DNA of 10,375 bases from an uncultured archaeon (GCA_963787445.1 CAWBCT010000019.1:1-10375); one strand, 5' to 3'; numbered from the stretch's first letter, positions 3 to 9,313 are shown. The notes: a model not told the origin generated them from the sequence alone. Numbers and translations: made by a program.

Positions 3-152
3 GCAGACATACCCCTCAAAGTTCGGGAGGAGATAATACTCGTTCTTGATGGAGAGCCCATAACTTGGAATGCAGCGTATATAGAGATAAAGAATGATAC
101 TGCGAATTCAGATAAGATACTCAGTAAGCTTACGGAGATGGAGTTGATATGA
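3..152 (+). CDS. 5'-truncated small hypothetical protein (C-terminal 49 aa), first visible gene of the protease cassette
   Basis: Frame 3 is open from the window edge: ADIPLKVREEIILVLDGEPITWNAAYIEIKNDTANSDKILSKLTEMELI*. The stop TGA at 150-152 overlaps the next ATG at 149-151 (ATGA coupling). Not in the ORF track because its start lies outside the window. Confidence 0.8.
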   Translation, partial: ADIPLKVREEIILVLDGEPITWNAAYIEIKNDTANSDKILSKLTEMELI

Positions 153-370
153 GCAAACAAATATCCAAAGAGGTAAAGGAGTTAGTAATTGCAAGGCTTG
201 AGGTTATGTCAAGCAGCATGAGAATCTCTATAGGCTCCTATGGAACATTTTCCAAAGAGGATCTTAAGAAGCACGTTGAAGCGGAGGACCCAATCGGTAA
301 AAAAGTGATAGAGGTGCAGATGTCCTTCCTGCGCTCGATAAAAGACGGCAAGCTCTATATTCAGAGTTAA
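149..370 (+). CDS. Small hypothetical protein (73 aa), predicted helix-hairpin-helix-helix architecture
   Basis: Complete ORF, ATGA-coupled to the upstream gene and ending 4 nt before the protease ORF. Amphipathic helical pattern. GGAG lies upstream of the start. Confidence 0.85.
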   Translation: MSKQISKEVKELVIARLEVMSSSMRISIGSYGTFSKEDLKKHVEAEDPIGKKVIEVQMSFLRSIKDGKLYIQS

Positions 371-374
371 CTAG

Positions 375-1022
375 ATGGGATGCGTTATGGAACGTCGCAT
401 GCTCGTAACCCTCCCTGACTACGACATGACAACGCACTATCTTTCTGTTTGGGGTAGAAAATCGATAAATGCTGCAGAGGAACATAACATTCAAGTAACC
501 ACATTGGAGAAGGAGAAGGTAAATAGGAAGAATGTCGAAAGTTACCTTTCTGGATTCAAGTTCAATGTAGTATTCCTCAATGGGCATGGAAGCCCTCAGC
601 TTGTAACAGGCCATCTGGAAGAGCCGGTTATAATTCTCGGTAAAAATGAAGCTGCACTTAAGGGTACGATAACTTACGCAGTATCGTGCAGTTCCGCCAA
701 GGAACTTGGTGACAGCACAATACTTGCAGGAGCACGTTGCTACGTAGGCTATACAGAGGATTTCATTTTTGTTCTAGATGATAATAACTCAACACACCCG
801 TCTGAGGATAAGCTTGCTGGATTGTTCCTAGAACATACGTATGTTTTCATGAACGGGCTGTTCAGGGGGGCTTCGGTGGGTGATGCGTATGAAAAGGCGC
901 GGGAGTCGTTGTGGTCTAGCATATCCATAGCTGAAAGCAGCGGCAATAAAGGGATACTCAGCTGGCTGGTTTGGGACTACTACGCATTCGTGCTGAAGGG
1001 CGATGGCAGCGCAATGCTGTGA
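375..1022 (+). CDS. Stand-alone caspase-hemoglobinase-fold (clan CD; peptidase C25/gingipain- or CHAT-like) cysteine protease
   Basis: A hydrophobic strand precedes the His-Gly motif VVFLNGHG (H71) and another precedes the Cys motif ITYAVSC (C105). These are followed by GARCYVGY and GASVGDAY, segments typical of C25/caspase-like folds. No signal peptide is visible. The start could instead be the ATG at 387. Confidence 0.75.
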   Translation: MGCVMERRMLVTLPDYDMTTHYLSVWGRKSINAAEEHNIQVTTLEKEKVNRKNVESYLSGFKFNVVFLNGHGSPQLVTGHLEEPVIILGKNEAALKGTITYAVSCSSAKELGDSTILAGARCYVGYTEDFIFVLDDNNSTHPSEDKLAGLFLEHTYVFMNGLFRGASVGDAYEKARESLWSSISIAESSGNKGILSWLVWDYYAFVLKGDGSAML

Positions 1023-1031
1023 AAGGTTGGG

Positions 1032-4000
1032 TTAGACCTTCTCCACAGCTATGTTCGCGGTCTCCCCTTCGATCTCGAACAGCTTCGCGTTGGGAGAGGC
1101 CGCTTCAACCAGTACAGTCGCGTTCACGTCCTTCTTGATCTTAACCATATTCTCCTTCACCAACCCGGCGAGCAGCGGCGAGCCGGTGTAGTGAACCCTT
1201 ACCCTATCGGGCTTTCTCAACTGCATCTCCTTGCGGAGGAGCTGGATGTGCCTCTCGAACTCCCTGATGAGAGCCTCGGACTGGAGCTCCTTGTCGATCT
1301 GCGGGTCGATGTAGGCTATGCCAGCGCGGAAGGGAACGCTGTTGGGCTTGGAGGCCTTCTCGAGCAGGGTAAAGTGCTCCTTGGTCACCTCAACGGGCCC
1401 CTTGGAAGTATGGAGCGTAAACACCCCCCTGGTTGAGATGCCAGCCTCGAGCGCCTTGGCGTCGGCACCCTTCAAGGCCTCAGCAACGGCCGAGGCCTTA
1501 TCCTTGAAGGAGGGGCCAAGCTTCGCGAACATAGGGCGGATCTCCACCTCAAAGTCCTCGGTGCGCTTGACTTCGAGGTGCTTCAAATTAGTATAGTCTT
1601 CCACAAGCCTTGCGAACCGTTGCAGAGACTGCTCAGATTCCGCCTTGTGGACTTCAAGGGTTGCCTTCGATAAGGGTTGCCTCAACTTGATGTTCGCCTT
1701 CTCCCTGCTGCTCAATATGGCAGTGACCGAGTCCATCGCAAGATCAAATCCAGTCTCAACCTCTGTATTAATCATCTTCTTGCTAACTTTTGGCCAGTCA
1801 TTCAGGAAGATGCTCTCTGCTGAGCCCTCTTTCTTGTAATATTTCAGATAAAGATACTCTGAAGTGAACGGGATGAACGGCGAATAGGCCGTGATCAGTG
1901 TATAAAGTAGGTAGTTAATTAGGTCCAGGGTCTTCTTTGCCTCTGACCTGCTCCCATCGATTATCCTCTTCTTGGCTATCTTGAGGTAGAATCTGCTCAA
2001 ATCATTAAGGCAGAACTCGCCTAGAGCGTTATTCGCTACCTGAACTTCGTACTTCTCAAGAGACTCACTCGCCGTCTTCAGAGTAGAGTTTAGCCTCGAC
2101 ACAATCCAAACATCCTCCAAATTACTCTTATCATTAATTCTTGGCTTCTTGATCTTGTCTGCCTTGTAGTCTATCGCAGAGGCGTAATCCTCAAACAACT
2201 GGAAAACGTTATACAAAATGTTAATCTTCTTGCTCGCCTCCTTTATCTCATCCTTCTTGAACTGCAAATCAAGCCACTGCGTATGGCTGGAAACCCATAA
2301 TCGATACGCATCCGCGCTGGTAAACGTCAAAAGTTCCTTCAATGAGATGTAATTGCCCCAACTCTTGTGCATCTCCCTTCCATCTTCAGCAAGTAGCATC
2401 CCGTCTATTACCACATTCTTGAAGGGGGTCTTCCCATAGACCATGACGCTGCTCTTCAGTAGTACAGAGAACCACCCCCTTAGTTGGTCCTTACCCTCAA
2501 GATGAAGGCAGCAGGGAACAGCCTCTCGAACTCCTCCTTGCTCAGGCTTGCCACGAAGGCGATGCTCGCATCGAACCAGACATCGGCCACATCGCTTATG
2601 CGGCGCATATGCCCTTGCACTTAGGGCAATCGAGTAAGATTGCATCTACATGAGGCCTATGAAGGTCATGAAGTTTTGCCACTGCCTCCTTATTGTGGGC
2701 CTTCTCTGATAACTCATGAACAGATCCGATAACCTCAATGTGCTTGCACTTGCTCGCACTCCCAGATCGGAATAGGAGTTCCCCAATATCTTTGCCTGGA
2801 GAAACACCAGTCAGGCGAGTTCTGGAGCACATCTCCATCCAAGATTGCGCTTCGGCAGGGTGCCAAGAGACCTTTCGGTTCTCCTTAATTATCTTCTTCT
2901 TGACCTTCTGCACGTTCAGGAACCACTGACGAGTGCCAATCATGATTAGTTTGGTATTGCATCTCCAACAATGAGGATAACTGTGAACTACATTGCCCAC
3001 ATCAAAAGGGCTCCCGTAGTCTTTAAGTATGACAATACCTTCTCATTTGCCTCACCAGGAACAGCGATGCCTTCCAAGGTTCCTGCATCAGAAGTATAGT
3101 GTGCATGTAAGTCAAGAGGCACAAGATTGGTAGTTTGTTCTTCTTGCCTGCCGCATAGTCCTCTGCGCCGTGACCAGGCGCTATGTGGACAAGGCCGCTT
3201 CCTTCAGTTGAGGAGACCAGGCCCTCTTCAAAGATGACCTTGTGAAACTTCCTGAACTCCTTCTGCTTTGGTATCTGGTCCTCAAGAGGGCTCAGATACT
3301 TTATCCCTTCAAGTTCGCTACCGTAGAACTCACTTTCAACGACAGCGCTCTCTCCAAGGACATCAACAACCGCATCAAGACGGCTTTGGGCAATTATGAG
3401 TGACTTGCTGCCAACTGTTGCCTTCACATAACGTCCTTTGGGGTTTACTGCCACGGCTATGTTGGCAGGTATGGTCCATGGTGTGGTGGTCCAGATGAGC
3501 AGGTAGGTGTTGTCATCTATCTTTATCTTTGGCCTTGACGCCTTCGCATCCACCTTGAATGCGACAAATATGGCCGGGTCCTTCTCATCCGAGTAGGAGA
3601 CCTCGAGGGTTCCCTGCGCAAGGACTGTCTCGCAGTGCGTGCAGTAGAGCATGGACTTGAGATCCGAGTAAAGAAGTCCTTTCTCGTACTCTTTCTTAAG
3701 TATCGACCATCCTGCCTCTATGAACTCCCTTTTGTATGCAAAGTACGCATTGTCAAAGTCAAGGGACATGCCGAAGCGCAGATAGTCTCTTTTCATATTA
3801 GGTATAAGGGCGTCGACGAACTCTTTGCAGCGCTTGATGAAGCTCTCGACCCCGATTCCGGTCTCGATATCCCTCTTGGAGGTTATCTTAAGCTCCCTCT
3901 CCACCTTATTTTCGATAGGAAGGCCATGGACGTCGTAGCCGGCGCGGTCATGGACATCCCAACCGTTGAGGCGCCTATACCTCAGAAGGATGTCCTTGAC

Positions 4001-4167
4001 ATCCTTTACCCAGATTTGACCAGGATGAAGCTCGCCGGAGGCGTAAGGGGGCCGTCTAGGAAGTAGAAGGGTTTCTTGCCCTTGTTCTTGGCGCGTGTCT
4101 TCTCGAGGATGCCGTTCTCGCTCCAGTACTTAAGAACCTCCTCTTCGTTCTTATTAAGGTCGAACAC
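1032..4167 (-). CDS. ileS: Isoleucine--tRNA ligase (archaeal/eukaryote-like type 2), interrupted by about 7 single-base indels
   Basis: GTG start at 4167 ([19 protein letters not shown]...FYFLDGP[P][10 protein letters not shown]). Motifs recovered across frames: [10 protein letters not shown], editing-domain WTTTPWT and [61 protein letters not shown], and a type-2 C-terminus ([16 protein letters not shown]). Frame breaks lie near 4049, 3118, 2997, 2833, 2753, 2611 and 2501. Confidence 0.95.
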
Positions 4168-4244: not shown

Positions 4245-4752
4245 ATGGAAGTGAACCAGATGCACGTTGAAGTACATTATAGAAAGGGTGAAAGTAACAA
4301 AAAGTTCAATCAGATAGTTGGAGTTGTTTCGTCCGCATTAAGTGAACTTGAAGGGAATGAACGCATTAGCAGAATTATTAACCAAATTAACCGAAAAATA
4401 AACTAAAAATGTCAGGAAGCTTGGCAGGATGGAGATAAATTATACAATATCTTTGGTGACCGTTTTGGATACCGATTTGACATCTATAATTGGAAAAAAT
4501 AAGACAGCAATTGAGATTGAGGAAAGTGAGGTAAAGTATATCTGGAGAGACTACGTAAAATTGGTAATGGGTTACAGAAAGGGATACGTAGTTAATGCGG
4601 TATTAATTTGTCCATTGAGTTATCATGAGCAGAAAATGAAGACAGGGGTTCCGATTTACTCCACTGCAAAAAAGATTTCCGAATTTATGAGTGATCTTTT
4701 GTGGATGAAGAATCTTGTAATTATAGGATATAGAAAAGGAGATAAAAAATAG
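4245..4752 (+). pseudogene. Disrupted PD-(D/E)xK restriction endonuclease, BamHI/BglII/BstYI-like (about 168 codons)
   Basis: ATG 4245 reads MEVNQMHVEVHY...NRKIN, then an in-frame TAA (4404-4406), then continues KCQEAWQDGDKLYNIFGDRFGYRFDIYNWK. A frameshift in the A6 run (4494-4499) joins the tracked ORF at NKTAIEIEESEVKYIWRDYVKL...NAVLICP. The reconstructed FDIY-x5-TAIEIE...RDYVKL resembles the D...ExE/ExQ nuclease core. It lies directly upstream of vsr and a methyltransferase stub. Confidence 0.55.
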
Positions 4753-4767
4753 AAAGCGTGACCTAGT

Positions 4768-5171
4768 ATGGATGTTTTATCTAAGAAACAACGAAGTTAC
4801 TGTATGTCAATGATAAAATCAAAAAACACAAAACCAGAAATTTTAGTAAAAAATATGCTTAAGGGATTGTACTTTGGTTATCAACCAGATATTTATGGGA
4901 GACCAGATTTCGCATCAAAAAAAAAAGAATTGCAATTTTTATTGATGGGTGTTTCTGGCATAAATGTTGAACATGTTTCCAAAAACCATCATCTAACCAA
5001 AAATTTTGGTTAAACAAAATAAATAAAAATGTGGGAAGAGACAGGAAAGTAGGCAAAAATTTGAGATCTGAAGGATGGACTGTGATTAGAATAAGTGAGT
5101 GCCAGGTTAAGAATAGTATAAATACACTACAATTGAAAGATTTAATTGGGGTAAACTCTAATGACAATTAA
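4768..5171 (+). pseudogene. vsr: Very-short-patch repair endonuclease, disrupted
   Basis: The N-terminus MDVLSKKQRSYCMSMIKSKNTKPE...GRPDF is diagnostic. After a frameshift in the A10 run (4917-4926) it continues RIAIFIDGCFWHKC*TCFQKPSSNQKFWLNKINKNVGRDRKVGKNLRSEGWTVIRISEC, with an in-frame TGA at 4968-4970 and a final TAA at 5169-5171. Confidence 0.9.
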
Positions 5172-5229
5172 AATATTGGATTTGTTTGCTGGTGCCGGAG
5201 GTTTGTCGCTTGGTTTTTTCGCCATTTGA
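5161..5229 (+). pseudogene. dcm: N-terminal stub of a DNA cytosine-5 methyltransferase (motif I only)
   Basis: MTIKILDLFAGAGGLSLGFFAI* contains the C5-MTase SAM-binding motif I (DLFAGAGG) and overlaps the vsr 3' end. I could not find motif IV (PC) or motif VI (ENV) downstream. Confidence 0.85.
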
Positions 5230-5377
5230 GTTACCTTTTTCATAGCGTATTTAAATTTCCCATTACCTACTTAATTTCTTATGATTCTTATATGTTCGCT
5301 TTGTCTAGAAATAGAAATTTGTAGAATACGAGATTTAACAAGCCTTAACCCGTCTGGCTTACGCTCTTCACGCTATC

Positions 5378-5707
5378 TTACCTCCTTCTAAGACTCATAA
5401 ACGATCTTCGTCTGCTTTCAACAGCCTTACCTTTAACACCACCCTCTTCGTCTTCCTCTTCTTCCCCTTGCGTAGTAGCACTTCCTTGATTTGAGAACCC
5501 CTTCTGCAGGTCGTTCCTGTTCAGTACCAGCCCATCCCAGATGGCTAAGGCTCCAGGATCCCTCCTTAGGGCTGACTCGGCGAAGACTCTAAGTAGGTCT
5601 AATTTTTTTATCGGGGCACTTTCCGGAGTGACGAGAGGAGTCCTAGTCGCTGGCGCTCTCGTTTTGGTTCTGACTTCAGCTACCATTTCCTCGATTAAAT
5701 AACTCAT
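5378..5707 (-). CDS. Hypothetical protein (109 aa) with an acidic tract and Arg-rich C-terminus
   Basis: ATG-initiated ORF that fills the gap between the RM remnant and the NUDIX gene, with an AT-rich upstream region. No recognisable motif. Confidence 0.5.
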   Translation of the reverse strand: MSYLIEEMVAEVRTKTRAPATRTPLVTPESAPIKKLDLLRVFAESALRRDPGALAIWDGLVLNRNDLQKGFSNQGSATTQGEEEEDEEGGVKGKAVESRRRSFMSLRRR

Positions 5708-5834
5708 TCCAAATATTTATACATTCTGTACAGTTGGATCTTTATCAAAGGAAAAGGTGTGATACACACAATATCAATATTGGTCGCAACTGATTAATAA
5801 CCTTTTTGTTTAGGTATTCGCATCGGGTGTTTTG

Positions 5835-6287
5835 GTGAAGAAGTGTCTGGTTTCTACGACTATTGTGTTTGACAAGGATCATAAGAATGTAATATTGCTC
5901 AATCATAAGAAACTTGAGGTATGGATGCCACCTGGAGGCCATATTGAACTAGGAGAACTGCCACCTAAAGCGGCGTCGAGGGAGGAAATGAAAGAGACGG
6001 TCGAAAAGTGAAGCTACTATACACAAAGAACAAGGTTAAAGGGAGACGGGAACGAGAGAGGTCCAGAACCACGTAGGACATTAACGAGAACGTAGAGGAA
6101 AAGGACGAGCCCCATCTGCATTTCGATATGGTCTACATAGCTGAAGCAGAGAGCAAAAACGCCGCTATGAGCCATGAATGACAGACATGGGATGGTTTGA
6201 CAGGAAATGAATACAACAGTTGAAGATGTTCCCTAATGTCCGTTCAGTGCTGAGGCTGCCTTCAAGGAGTTCGGCAGCAAAGAATAA
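5835..6287 (+). pseudogene. NUDIX hydrolase, multiply disrupted
   Basis: GTG at 5835 reads VKKCLVSTTIVFDKDHKNVILLNHKKLEVWMPPGGHIELGELPPKAASREEMKET (Nudix box). Fragments in other frames follow: NENVEEKDEPHLHFDMVYIAEA, DMGWFDRK*IQQLKMFPNVRSVL and EAAFKEFGSKE*. Confidence 0.8.
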
Positions 6288-6325: not shown

Positions 6326-7938
6326 ATGAAGTTCAAGAACGAGTTCACCTACCGTAAGTTCCTTGAGGAAGGGAAAGAGACGGAATTCGATAGGCATTTC
6401 GATAATAGCGTGGCCAAGATACAAGTGGGACGCTCGGGAAGACCTTCCCAATTTACATAAACGGTAAAGAAGTCCGCACAAAAGAGGAATTAGTCGAGTA
6501 TTCTCCTATTAACGGCTCCTTGATCGGCAGATTCCAGAAAGGTGATAGAAACACAGCCATAGAGGCCATCTCAGCCGCCAAGGCAGCCTTCCACTCATGG
6601 TCAACCACTAACTACAAAGACAGGATCAAAATCCTCAGAAACGCTGCCTCCATAATCTCCACCAAGAAGTTCGAGCTCGCCGCCATCCTCAGCATAGAGA
6701 ATGGGAAGACGCGCTACGAGTCTATCGGAGAGGTGGACGAGGCGATAGACTTCATCAACTACTACTGCATAGAGATGGAGCGTAACAAGGGTTTCATCAG
6801 GAGGTCAAAGCTTATCGGCACTAAAGAAACCGTAAAAGCCGGTTTCCAGGGGGCTCCTGGCCAGAAGGAGAAGGCCACCATACTATTCAAGCCCTACGGG
6901 GTCTTCGGGGTGATCGCACCCTTCAACTTCCCAGTCTCCATCTCAACGGGCATGAGCGTGGGGGCCATGCTCACGGGCAACACAGTGGTGTTCAAGCCCT
7001 CCTGCACGGACAACGTGTCCATGCTTACCGGCCTCAAGCTTTACGAGATCTTCAAGGAGGCAGGGCTTCCGGACGGGGTGTTTAACTACGTAACAGGTCC
7101 AGGCTCAGAAGTGGGTGACGCCTTACTAACCAGCCCGGACGTCGCTGGCATCGCCTTCACCGGCTCCCGCGAGACCGGCCTGTCCATGATCGCCAAGTCC
7201 TACGCCCTCAGGCAGCAGAAGGTCTTCATAGTCGAGATGGGCGGGAAGAATGCCGCTATCGTTACTAAAAACGCCAACCTCGACGATGCGGCCTCGGGCA
7301 TAAGCAGCGCGGCCTTCGGCTTCAGCGGGCAGAAGTGCAGCGCCTGCTCGCGCGTCTACGTGCACGAGTCCGTGAAGGAGGAGTTCGTGAGCAAGCTGCT
7401 GGAGAGGACCAGGTCATTGAAGATAGGGGATCCTTTAATCAAGGGCAACTACATCGGCCCGCTCATAAGCGTGAAGGCGCTGGAGAGGTACAAGGAGACG
7501 GTTACGCAGCTCAGGAAGGAGCACATAATGACAGGAGGCAATCTGGTGGAGACGGGCGTGGAGGGCCTTTACGTGGAGCCGGTGGTCGCAGAGGCAGAGC
7601 ACGGCAACCCGCTGTTCAAGAAGGAGCTCTTCCTGCCAATATTGCTGGTTGACACTTACAAGAAGCTTGAGGATGCCATAAGGATGGCCAACGACTCCGA
7701 GTACGGGCTCACGGCCGGACTGTACAGCAAGAAGACATCGGAGATCAAGCAGTTCCTAAACTCCATAGAAGCGGGCACGGTTTACGTTAATAGGGCCGTA
7801 AGCGCCACAACGGGTGCGATAGTGGGCTTCCACACCTTCGTGGGCTGGAAGGGCAGCGGGCTCACCGGGAAGGGCACCGGGAGCAGGGAGTACCTCCAGC
7901 AGTTCATGCGCGAGCAGAGTCAGGCGGTGGTGAAGTAG
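6326..7938 (+). CDS. NAD-dependent aldehyde dehydrogenase, most like 1-pyrroline-5-carboxylate dehydrogenase (RocA/PruA-type); one frameshift near 6420-6427
   Basis: ALDH motifs IAPFNFP, FKPS, FTGS, catalytic EMGGKN, GQKCSACSR (P5CDH-type), ELFLP and YGLTAG. The true start is probably ATG 6326 (MKFKNEFTYRKF...), which joins TLGKTFPIYINGKEV...SPINGSLIGRF in the tracked frame. Confidence 0.85.
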
Positions 7939-8575
7939 GACTTGGATTGGACATATAGTAAGATTTTGCATAAAGTCGTTCTTTTGGCAATTTTCTTGCG
8001 TCTCTAAGCGTATCTCGCACCTTCCTGCGGAAAGCAGGCTTGTACTTTTCAAGATAGGAGTTAAGCCTCCTTGAGTCAAGACCTGGAAGTATGTTCTGCC
8101 ATAGCTCATCCCTTATGGCGCCTCCGAAGTAGAGCATGTCTATTATTGTCTTTTCCAAATCAGACACAGGAACCCAGAATCCATCTCGCTTTACAAGTCC
8201 ATACCCAAAGAATAGTTCTGGCTTCATCCGGTATACCAGATAATTAGCACCTAAAAACGTCCGTAGACCCATTCGGACATTCTTTGGCGTGATTACTATC
8301 GGATTTGTCCCTTGCATGGAGAGACCCCTTATTCTAAGAGCGTCCTCCAACCCGTAATATGAGGGAGAGAAAGCGAAGCATAGGACGACCATGTCTTGAT
8401 GGAACGTGTATATGCCCCTGGTTATCTTTGCTATAAGCCCCCGTTTGAGGAGGTTATGGATGAGGAGCCTGCGGTAACCCGCGCTAAGACCCTTTATGAT
8501 CTTGAGTTCGTTGACGTTGAATACGGGTTTGGTAGTGCTAGAAAACTCCTCTTTGATATTCTGAAGGTATCTCAC
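7904..8575 (-). CDS. abiEi: AbiEi-family antitoxin / transcriptional regulator (winged HTH plus AbiEi C-terminal domain)
   Basis: The wHTH end LIHNLLKRGLIAKITRGIY, plus PSYYGLEDALRIRGL and VSDLEKTIIDML, match the AbiEi/COG5340 pattern. The GTG start overlaps the toxin stop (GTGA). Confidence 0.8.
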   Translation of the reverse strand: MRYLQNIKEEFSSTTKPVFNVNELKIIKGLSAGYRRLLIHNLLKRGLIAKITRGIYTFHQDMVVLCFAFSPSYYGLEDALRIRGLSMQGTNPIVITPKNVRMGLRTFLGANYLVYRMKPELFFGYGLVKRDGFWVPVSDLEKTIIDMLYFGGAIRDELWQNILPGLDSRRLNSYLEKYKPAFRRKVRDTLRDARKLPKERLYAKSYYMSNPSPTSPPPDSARA

Positions 8576-9228
8576 TCTATCTCCCCCATTATCGTGTCTT
8601 TCATATCCTTAAGGGACGGAACAGGTCCGTTATAGACAATACTCTGAAGCTCCTTTTCGTTTACAGGTTCTTCGAGATGTTCTATGAACTTCTTCAGAGG
8701 CCTCCTAATGAGTTCCTTCTTACCCGAATAGGCAATCAACTGATATATATCGTAAATGTCTCTTGCATATTTTCTACTCTCGTATGCATCAATCTTCTCA
8801 AGTATGTACTGCTCAGCAGTAAGTGTGCGTAATTTCAGTGTTGTCCCATTTATCCGCTCAAATTCCCTGAAGCTTCCATTTTCCTTGTCTTCTGGACACT
8901 TGATGTCTACGCTCAGTTTTGACTTTGAATTGGAGATATAAATTCTCAGAGATCTGTTTGTCGCAGATATTTTATCGGTGTAGATTCCGAGCCTTTGGAG
9001 GTTCGCTGCGATTGAGTTCTTAATTATCTCGATGCTCCTTTCCGATGCAACGTAAAGATCTATGTCAAATGAGAATCTGTTTCCTGAATAGCATCGCCAG
9101 ATTCCCGTTCCTCCATGGAGCACAAAACTGTTGTCTATAGCGAATATTGTGTCGATAAACAAGTCCTGAAGCTCAGCCAGATCTATGAACTCTTGGTTCT
9201 TCAAGCTTAAGGCTATCGGAATTTTCAT
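8572..9228 (-). CDS. abiEii: AbiEii/AbiGii-family (DUF1814) nucleotidyltransferase toxin
   Basis: FVLHGGTGIWRCYSGNRFSFDIDL (GGT...RxSxDxD) and EKIDAYESRKYARDIYD (K...R...RDxYD) motifs. Confidence 0.9.
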   Translation of the reverse strand: MKIPIALSLKNQEFIDLAELQDLFIDTIFAIDNSFVLHGGTGIWRCYSGNRFSFDIDLYVASERSIEIIKNSIAANLQRLGIYTDKISATNRSLRIYISNSKSKLSVDIKCPEDKENGSFREFERINGTTLKLRTLTAEQYILEKIDAYESRKYARDIYDIYQLIAYSGKKELIRRPLKKFIEHLEEPVNEKELQSIVYNGPVPSLKDMKDTIMGEIE

Positions 9229-9236
9229 ATTACCAC

Positions 9237-9313
9237 AGTTATACTATAATATAATTATAGTAGGATATAAATATCTATCTTTTTATTTACAATAGTTATA
9301 TTATAATATAATT
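9237..9313. promoter_or_regulatory. Putative abiE promoter/operator: 20-bp direct repeat with palindromes flanking a TATA-like box
   Basis: AGTTATACTATAATATAATT (9237-9256) and AGTTATATTATAATATAATT (9294-9313) are 19/20 identical. There is a perfect inverted repeat TACTATAAT-ata-ATTATAGTA (9242-9262) and a perfect 16-bp palindrome TTATATTATAATATAA (9296-9311). A minus-strand TTTATAT box at 9265-9271 is preceded by a purine-rich BRE-like run. Confidence 0.6.

Follow-up and report, generated by a model that had tools for sequence, protein, structure and literature searches.

The window analysed here, a stretch of 10,375 nucleotides (nt) of DNA from an uncultured archaeon (GCA_963787445.1, CAWBCT010000019.1:1-10375) taken at its full length, carries at its left end (positions 3-1,022) a cassette of three tightly packed genes, designated A, B, and C. 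A and B encode small proteins whose families appear from their sequences to be without known relatives, and C encodes a predicted cysteine peptidase homologue of clan CD, which would constitute a new protease family with dedicated partners. Across the DPANN archaea and the bacteria of the Candidate Phyla Radiation (CPR), A, B, and C are passed on together as a tightly spaced unit. By analogy with characterized clan CD enzymes, we consider it somewhat probable that C is a minimal cytoplasmic protease that works in a complex with A and B, and that its latency is supplied in trans by A and/or B. The features of the cassette are as follows.

3-152, plus strand: gene A, 3' part, encoding a small soluble protein; open reading frame (ORF) of 49 amino acids (aa), open on the 5' side at the contig start, about 61 aa when complete.
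149-370, plus strand: gene B, encoding a soluble protein; ORF of 73 aa with ATG start, overlapping the stop codon of A (ATGA).
375-1022, plus strand: gene C, encoding a single-domain clan CD cysteine peptidase homologue; ORF of 215 aa with ATG start.
423-425, plus strand: codon of D17 in C, the candidate S1 specificity residue, acidic and one position before helix 1.
579-590, plus strand: codons N69-G70-H71-G72 (aat ggg cat gga) in C; the Gly-His-Gly loop that follows strand 3 contains the putative catalytic His.
687-689, plus strand: codon of C105 (tgc) in C, the putative catalytic nucleophile, after strand 4.

An earlier note, made from the sequence of this DNA alone, had described three co-oriented, packed genes with an ATGA overlap and a 4-nt gap, and the ORF list and the sequence agree exactly with that description: the A/B overlap occupies 149-152 and the B-to-C spacer 371-374. 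The window is the entire contig C19 of genome G000 (1.05 Mb in 19 contigs, 82% complete, 5.4% contamination), and A is interrupted by the start of that contig, the assembly having nothing to the left of it. All relatives have an A of about 61 aa at full length, the 61-aa relative P0286 is identical to the window A across its 49 residues, and the window copy is short of full length by only about 12 codons. Because A lacks so few codons and its upstream genes vary between loci, the cassette ends with A, contrary to the suggestion in the note that it might extend to the left. The C homologues in the alignment open with M[QP]KRM[LI]VTLP, so the true start of C is probably Met5 (nt 387, giving 211 aa and a 16-nt gap); the stored gene call for C (P0001) is 207 aa. 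The residue numbers used below, including H71 and C105, follow the 215-aa ORF and not the Met5 start. The GC content swings within the 10 kb from 0.33 (4501-5000) to 0.59 (1001-1500 and 7001-7500), with the cassette at 0.43-0.46. On another contig of the same genome, C16, positions 1-1838 (L002) repeat window positions 682-2519 at 96.7% identity with 6 gaps, starting from C residue 104; this repeat does not amount to another cassette equipped with A and B genes, and its probable source is heterogeneity between strains or redundancy in the assembly.

The fold of C was predicted with AlphaFold2 (AF2) from a 14-sequence alignment, giving a model with a mean predicted local distance difference test (pLDDT) score of 92.1 and a predicted template modelling (pTM) score of 0.89. 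In the model, strands run at residues 8-13, 40-45, 65-69, 99-103, 122-126, and 205-209, with a hairpin after strand 3 and helices that include H18-36; they form a six-stranded sheet (five parallel strands, one antiparallel) with flanking helices and a small sheet section after strand 3, as the clan CD fold demands. When the model was searched with Foldseek, the top matches were SAVED-CHAT, separase, caspase-4, legumain, and the gingipains; all 50 among the matches listed were clan CD enzymes or CHAT domains, with matches spanning residues 1-215, and some of the matches from the Protein Data Bank (PDB) are enzymes in complex with an inhibitor (securin, cystatin, p35, or the RgpB prodomain). Among the gingipain regions, the only one to which C aligns, over all of its 215 aa, is the C-terminal catalytic subdomain (1cvr, residues 136-347). 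According to the model, C is a bare catalytic domain that adopts the six-strand caspase/haemoglobinase fold and places its His and Cys where the dyad canonically lies. An exhaustive search placed 934 representative clusters in the C family at E<=1e-3 (413 at 1e-10), and because all 150 relatives among the matches listed are 115-246 aa long, the family is a stand-alone domain.

At the level of sequence the affiliation is much fainter. The window C did not match the Peptidase_C25 model (PF01364) at E<=1, and by sequence it belongs neither to that family nor to the CHAT (PF12770) or C14 (PF00656) families as defined by their Pfam models. In a Pfam scan of 130 C relatives, Peptidase_C25 was detected in 2/130 (best E 7.2e-7) and CHAT in 1/130 (E 0.0098), and the remaining eleven families were single, unrelated matches; the C family thus seems to hold a faint sequence trace of the gingipain family. 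The nearest named Atlas clusters of C were CHAT (0.89) and C25 (0.87), both under the tool's trust level. Searches of A, B, and C against Pfam, NCBIfam, PADLOC, and PHROGs yielded no match better than chance, with 0 families in PADLOC-DB 2.0 for the three proteins at E<=1, and profiles built from 130 C, 111 A, and 114 B relatives found nothing below E 0.25 among the PDB sequences, including no gingipain for C.

The putative catalytic residues of C are invariant in the alignment of its relatives. In the query plus 144 relatives of at least 195 aa (145 rows, from 161 proteins), H71, G72, and C105 are each present in 145/145; G70, G79, and G125 are each present in 144/145, D145 in 142/145, N69 and Y126 each in 140/145, and P142 in 139/145. 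Among full-length C sequences taken from the loci described below (n=34), the His is present in 33/34 and the Cys in 34/34. H71 lies two residues past strand 65-69 and C105 two residues past strand 99-103 in the model, and this placement after strands 3 and 4 agrees with the definition of clan CD given in a section of PMC4357240. The note had thus read the protein correctly on several counts: the caspase/gingipain fold emerged from Foldseek, the H71/C105 dyad is intact and conserved, and from a reading of the sequences, together with a catalytic domain that fills the 215 residues, C carries no signal peptide or sensor domain.

Endopeptidases of clan CD are strict about the P1 residue, and two conserved features of C offer a clue to its specificity. 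The passages on RgpB in PMC4357240 state that the sole side chain binding the P1 arginine is Asp163, located on the first helix, and that the glycines flanking the catalytic His also touch P1. Position 17 of C is Asp in 125/145 rows and Glu in the other 20/145. Since C possesses both the Gly-His-Gly loop and a conserved Asp/Glu before helix 1, as in gingipain R, it probably cleaves after Arg or Lys.

The association of C with A and B was examined in the DNA surrounding C relatives, and A-B-C order on one strand was found in 68/68 distinct loci with enough upstream DNA, from DPANN archaea and CPR bacteria. This count was made after removal of five duplicates (L023 lies in L003, L104 is L009, L094 is L008, L088 is L007, and L046 is also L007, at the same place in G301). 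A genome contig collection yielded nine loci from Micrarchaeota, a metagenome-assembled genome labelled Thaumarchaeota, Saccharibacteria, Paceibacterota, and Woesearchaeota, with the order present in 7/7 that had upstream DNA, L006 and L011 being cut by contig ends. Sampling of 301 genomes from the window's phylum yielded 27 loci in 25 genomes besides G000, with the order in 27/27; 28 genomes there match C, two of them by weak partial matches (E ~1e-4) with no adjoining A or B (L038, L039). From 301 sampled Patescibacteria (the phylum of the genome carrying L007), nine genomes match, one weakly (L051), and the order was found in 8/8 loci. Metagenome contigs yielded 34 loci, of which 31 have the order, L100 and L103 are truncated where the contig begins, and L114 retains only a frameshifted B and C, 92 nt from the contig start. 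Homologues of the three genes thus co-occur at every locus that could be examined, and the note's remark that similar clusters recur in DPANN and CPR genomes was borne out. Of the three findings that would have overturned the note's reading (a fold outside clan CD, an unconserved dyad, or genes that do not co-occur), none was made.

Several further properties mark the three genes as a unit. After reduction at 95% identity, 62 non-redundant cassettes remain. Intergenic gaps range from -38 to +33 nt across 40 cassettes (three with a broken C excepted), and the pairwise divergences of A, B, and C correlate with one another (r 0.69, 0.68, and 0.75). A search of the 301 phylum genomes with B found 25 holders, each of which also has C, and no genome with B but without C; the sole C-holder missed by the B search, G071, has a weak B standing beside its C. 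At five loci (L036, L037, L044, L049, and L050) C is split, truncated, or stop-bearing while A and B are intact, and wherever C is intact, A and B are unbroken too.

The families of A and B are similar in size (1756 and 1363 proteins, respectively, with the A family counted at E<=1e-3). Both are from Patescibacteria and DPANN lineages, without Pfam domains, and every source name is "hypothetical"; the nearest Atlas clusters of A are likewise unnamed, with only hypothetical neighbours. Both proteins are conserved along their entire length with a net charge near neutral (medians -1 and 0). The invariant residues of A (P0286 numbering) are F8, Y12, P16, R20, W34, T45, I51, and L55, and the invariant residues of B include R16, S27, G50, and K52. 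The B model reached a pLDDT of 91 and ends in a strand-helix-helix with an invariant Gly at the helix-helix turn; it did not match any of the solved folds searched, and no DNA-binding fold was found among them. From its hydrophobic pattern, our guess for A is a helix-strand-strand-helix-helix arrangement. An identity of B as IHF beta was suggested by one NCBIfam match (E 0.009; 16 bits, cutoff 120), which the fold searches did not bear out. A and B were also compared as possible paralogues, and no relation between them was detected (hhalign probability 2% with 8-sequence profiles, 0.4% with 111- and 114-sequence profiles).

We propose that the three proteins would assemble into one complex, in which A and/or B would hold C latent in trans as an inhibitor or prodomain-like partner, and perhaps serve also as adaptor, sensor, or targeting factor for C, until a trigger releases the protease. 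Almost every other clan CD enzyme is held in check by a prodomain, an N- or C-terminal region, or a cognate inhibitor. According to Table 2 of PMC4357240, most clan CD families are self-inhibited by terminal regions or prodomains, and in the part of that source dealing with RgpB the prodomain inserts an Arg into the S1 pocket. C has no prodomain or terminal region of this kind, its 215 residues being all catalytic domain, which is the reason for assigning latency to A and/or B. An invariant Arg/Lys of a partner might be offered to the S1 pocket of C in the same manner, and R20 of A and R16 and K52 of B are the candidate pseudo-substrate or cleavage sites.

A number of observations weigh against this proposal. 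A and B are compact and strongly conserved, with many invariant polar residues; a simple inhibitor needs less, and the two might have functions in their own right, for example nucleic-acid binding or a role as enzyme subunits. Covariation between A, B, and C, calculated as mutual information with average product correction over the 62 cassettes, was phylogenetic noise dominated by two variable B columns. Of the five AF2 models of C, only the one described above was confident, the other four having a mean pLDDT of 61-69, and the P1 specificity rests on sequence position and predicted secondary structure, not on residue-level superposition. At L009 (Paceibacterota, 1638-2285; the same locus as L104) the motif is FLNGYGDD, in which Tyr replaces the catalytic His, the Cys and the rest of the cassette being intact; this variant may be an inactive form or a sequencing error. 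Finally, the peptidase activity of C is a prediction, and legumain-type enzymes of clan CD are also able to ligate.

The cassette is an accessory unit, with a patchy distribution and variable neighbours. It was found in 26/301 sampled genomes of the window's phylum (16/176 when the high-quality genomes are tallied, two weak matches included), in 8/301 sampled Patescibacteria, and in 0/4 other genomes of the window's genus; these counts describe samples in which many genomes are incomplete. Among 141 flanking ORFs from 40 loci, no family occurs in more than two distinct loci, and most flanking genes are housekeeping genes, e.g., those for SRP54, tRNA synthetases, ScpAB, GreA, and PyrBI. A mobile-element, toxin-antitoxin, or defence-type gene lies within 3 kb at 9/39 distinct loci (tyrosine integrase, DDE transposase, PIN, PemK, CopG antitoxin, HNH, CARF, Fic, and YhcG nuclease), a raw count not set against chance frequency. 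No CRISPR or CBASS genes were found near the cassette in the flanks of the 40 loci and the window, and no shared inverted repeat was detected in the 120 nt upstream of A at 39 loci. A scan of viral contigs gave no relative among 32 pattern matches, and a search of BFVD returned only generic caspase-domain proteins of giant viruses plus two phage proteins (E ~5e-5).

The operon is common to archaea and bacteria. In a tree of C, the window clade (7 rows, support 99/93) stands among CPR rows, at a distance from the remaining clades of its phylum. The unconstrained tree requires two or more changes of archaea/bacteria label, but a single clade of the bacterial rows is not rejected by the approximately unbiased (AU) test (p 0.19). 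Of the full cassettes, the closest is L003, in a Micrarchaeota genome of the same family as the window, which lies between an upstream tyrosine integrase gene and a downstream gene for a HerA/AAA_10-like ATPase (4528-5529 and 7483-9252); this flanking suggests an integrated element.

Elsewhere in the window, several genes are interrupted. Directly after the cassette, on the minus strand (1032-4167), an isoleucyl-tRNA synthetase is split over four frames (1032-2645, 2596-3000, 3023-3904, and 4006-4167) with Pfam tRNA-synt_1 and Anticodon_1 pieces, and the copy on contig C16 is broken at other places; either assembly frameshifts or a decayed gene would account for it. On the plus strand, a Vsr mismatch endonuclease is apparently split between 4768-5013 (Pfam Vsr) and 5031-5171 in another frame, and a lone NUDIX fragment of 59 aa is found at 5832-6011; both again point to sequence errors or gene breakage on the contig. 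At 7904-9228 on the minus strand, a gene for an AbiEi antitoxin-like protein (7904-8575) overlaps one for an AbiEii nucleotidyltransferase toxin-like protein (8572-9228), and judged by sequence the two are a type IV toxin-antitoxin or abortive-infection pair.

Three other explanations of the cassette were weighed. A special case of the trans-latency proposal is a tripartite toxin-antitoxin or abortive-infection module with C as toxic protease, B as antitoxin, and A as small autoregulator, in which loss or sensing of an invader would free C and lead to cell arrest or death; we regard this as a possibility worth keeping in view, although on the unlikely side. The patchy distribution and variable neighbours fit such a module, as does the coupling of small upstream genes to a larger downstream gene, and an AbiEi/AbiEii pair lies in the window itself, 7 kb from the cassette. 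The neighbourhood evidence cuts both ways: mobile-element, toxin-antitoxin, or defence-type genes are present at nine of the 39 loci, but this number has no chance frequency to be read against, and most neighbours are housekeeping genes. Similarly, the decay of C at five loci that retain A and B, with none the reverse, counts in favour of the module, but an asymmetry of this size is expected about 1 time in 11 from gene lengths alone ((645/1045)^5). PADLOC returned no match, the viral contigs returned no relative, and the conserved palindrome that an autoregulated operon might have upstream of A was not seen. In the most far-reaching version, the cassette would be the smallest caspase-type cell-fate switch known, i.e., a three-protein abortive-infection/addiction module peculiar to the ultra-small, episymbiotic DPANN and CPR, in which partners of new fold would keep a bare catalytic domain latent until a signal frees it, transferred intact between archaea and bacteria as an operon; this we think rather doubtful.

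The cassette might instead be a protease-operated gene switch, in which A and/or B are small nucleic-acid-binding regulators cleaved or released by C, as with the CHAT protease DdvA, one of those whose partners are anti-sigma or sigma-binding proteins. Csx29, with its partner Csx30, is another CHAT protease of this kind. The strand-helix-helix end of B with its invariant Gly recalls ribbon-helix-helix proteins, invariant basic and polar residues occur in both A and B, and the weak IHF beta match points the same way, far below its cutoff as it is. We nevertheless find a gene switch improbable, given that B has no recognizable DNA-binding fold among the folds searched, neither A nor B has a match among the PDB sequences, both proteins are near neutral in net charge, and the loci examined have neither a conserved operator-like repeat upstream nor linked target genes. 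Equally hard to credit is a maturation or housekeeping protease, or a transpeptidase, acting on the proteins of episymbiont cells, with A and B as chaperone-like assembly factors or processed substrates. Many of the neighbours are housekeeping genes, the C family is large and old-looking (30-40% identity across domains), and clan CD includes ligases and sortase-like enzymes, with legumain-type ligases among the matches of C. The sampled distribution speaks against it: a cassette held by only 26/301 and 8/301 genomes and absent from close relatives of the window genome cannot be a core function, and A and B differ from typical processed precursors in being compactly folded and conserved from end to end. 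The preferred explanation remains a clan CD protease kept latent in trans by one or both of its small partners.

CPR and DPANN account for a large share of microbial diversity, are mostly uncultured, and possess many genes of unassigned role; to our knowledge, few defence or addiction systems are known from them. If A and B control the protease, the cassette would be a minimal model for the latency and release of clan CD proteases and a possible defence or addiction system of these organisms, and A-B-C would be a documented operon shared between archaea and bacteria. At 61, 73, and 211 aa all three proteins are small, and good folding is predicted for B and C, which makes biochemical and structural tests easy. 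A description of the cassette was not found in the literature searched, which took in neither supplements nor subscription journals; the papers listed deal with other systems, judging by title and abstract.

Among known systems, the omega-epsilon-zeta operon is a three-gene arrangement of regulator, antitoxin, and toxin, and the cassette resembles it in the small-small-large order, the tight coupling, and the accessory, patchy occurrence; there is no relation in sequence or fold, and a protease would take the place of a kinase as putative toxin. The separase-securin, caspase-p35/IAP, and legumain-cystatin pairs are likewise clan CD enzymes with cognate protein inhibitors, but they are eukaryotic or viral systems with much larger or dimeric enzymes and unrelated inhibitors; nothing links A or B to securin, p35/IAP, or cystatin in the fold search of B or in the PDB sequence-profile searches of both. 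TPR-CHAT/Csx29 is a CHAT-domain protease of a prokaryotic immune system. Compared with the CHAT immune proteases (SAVED-CHAT, 8tl0), C is without SAVED, TPR, or any other sensor domain, and the CHAT Pfam model is unmatched. Gingipain R (RgpB, MEROPS C25; 1cvr, 4ief) is resembled in its catalytic C-terminal subdomain at 9-11% identity, but C is without the N-terminal subdomain, Ig-like domain, prodomain, signal peptide, and secretion domain, looks cytoplasmic, and has two small partners encoded beside it whose folds are unrelated and unmatched. To judge from the model, the gingipain catalytic subdomain (C25) and the CHAT domains are the closest relatives of C by fold, while by sequence model C is a member of neither.
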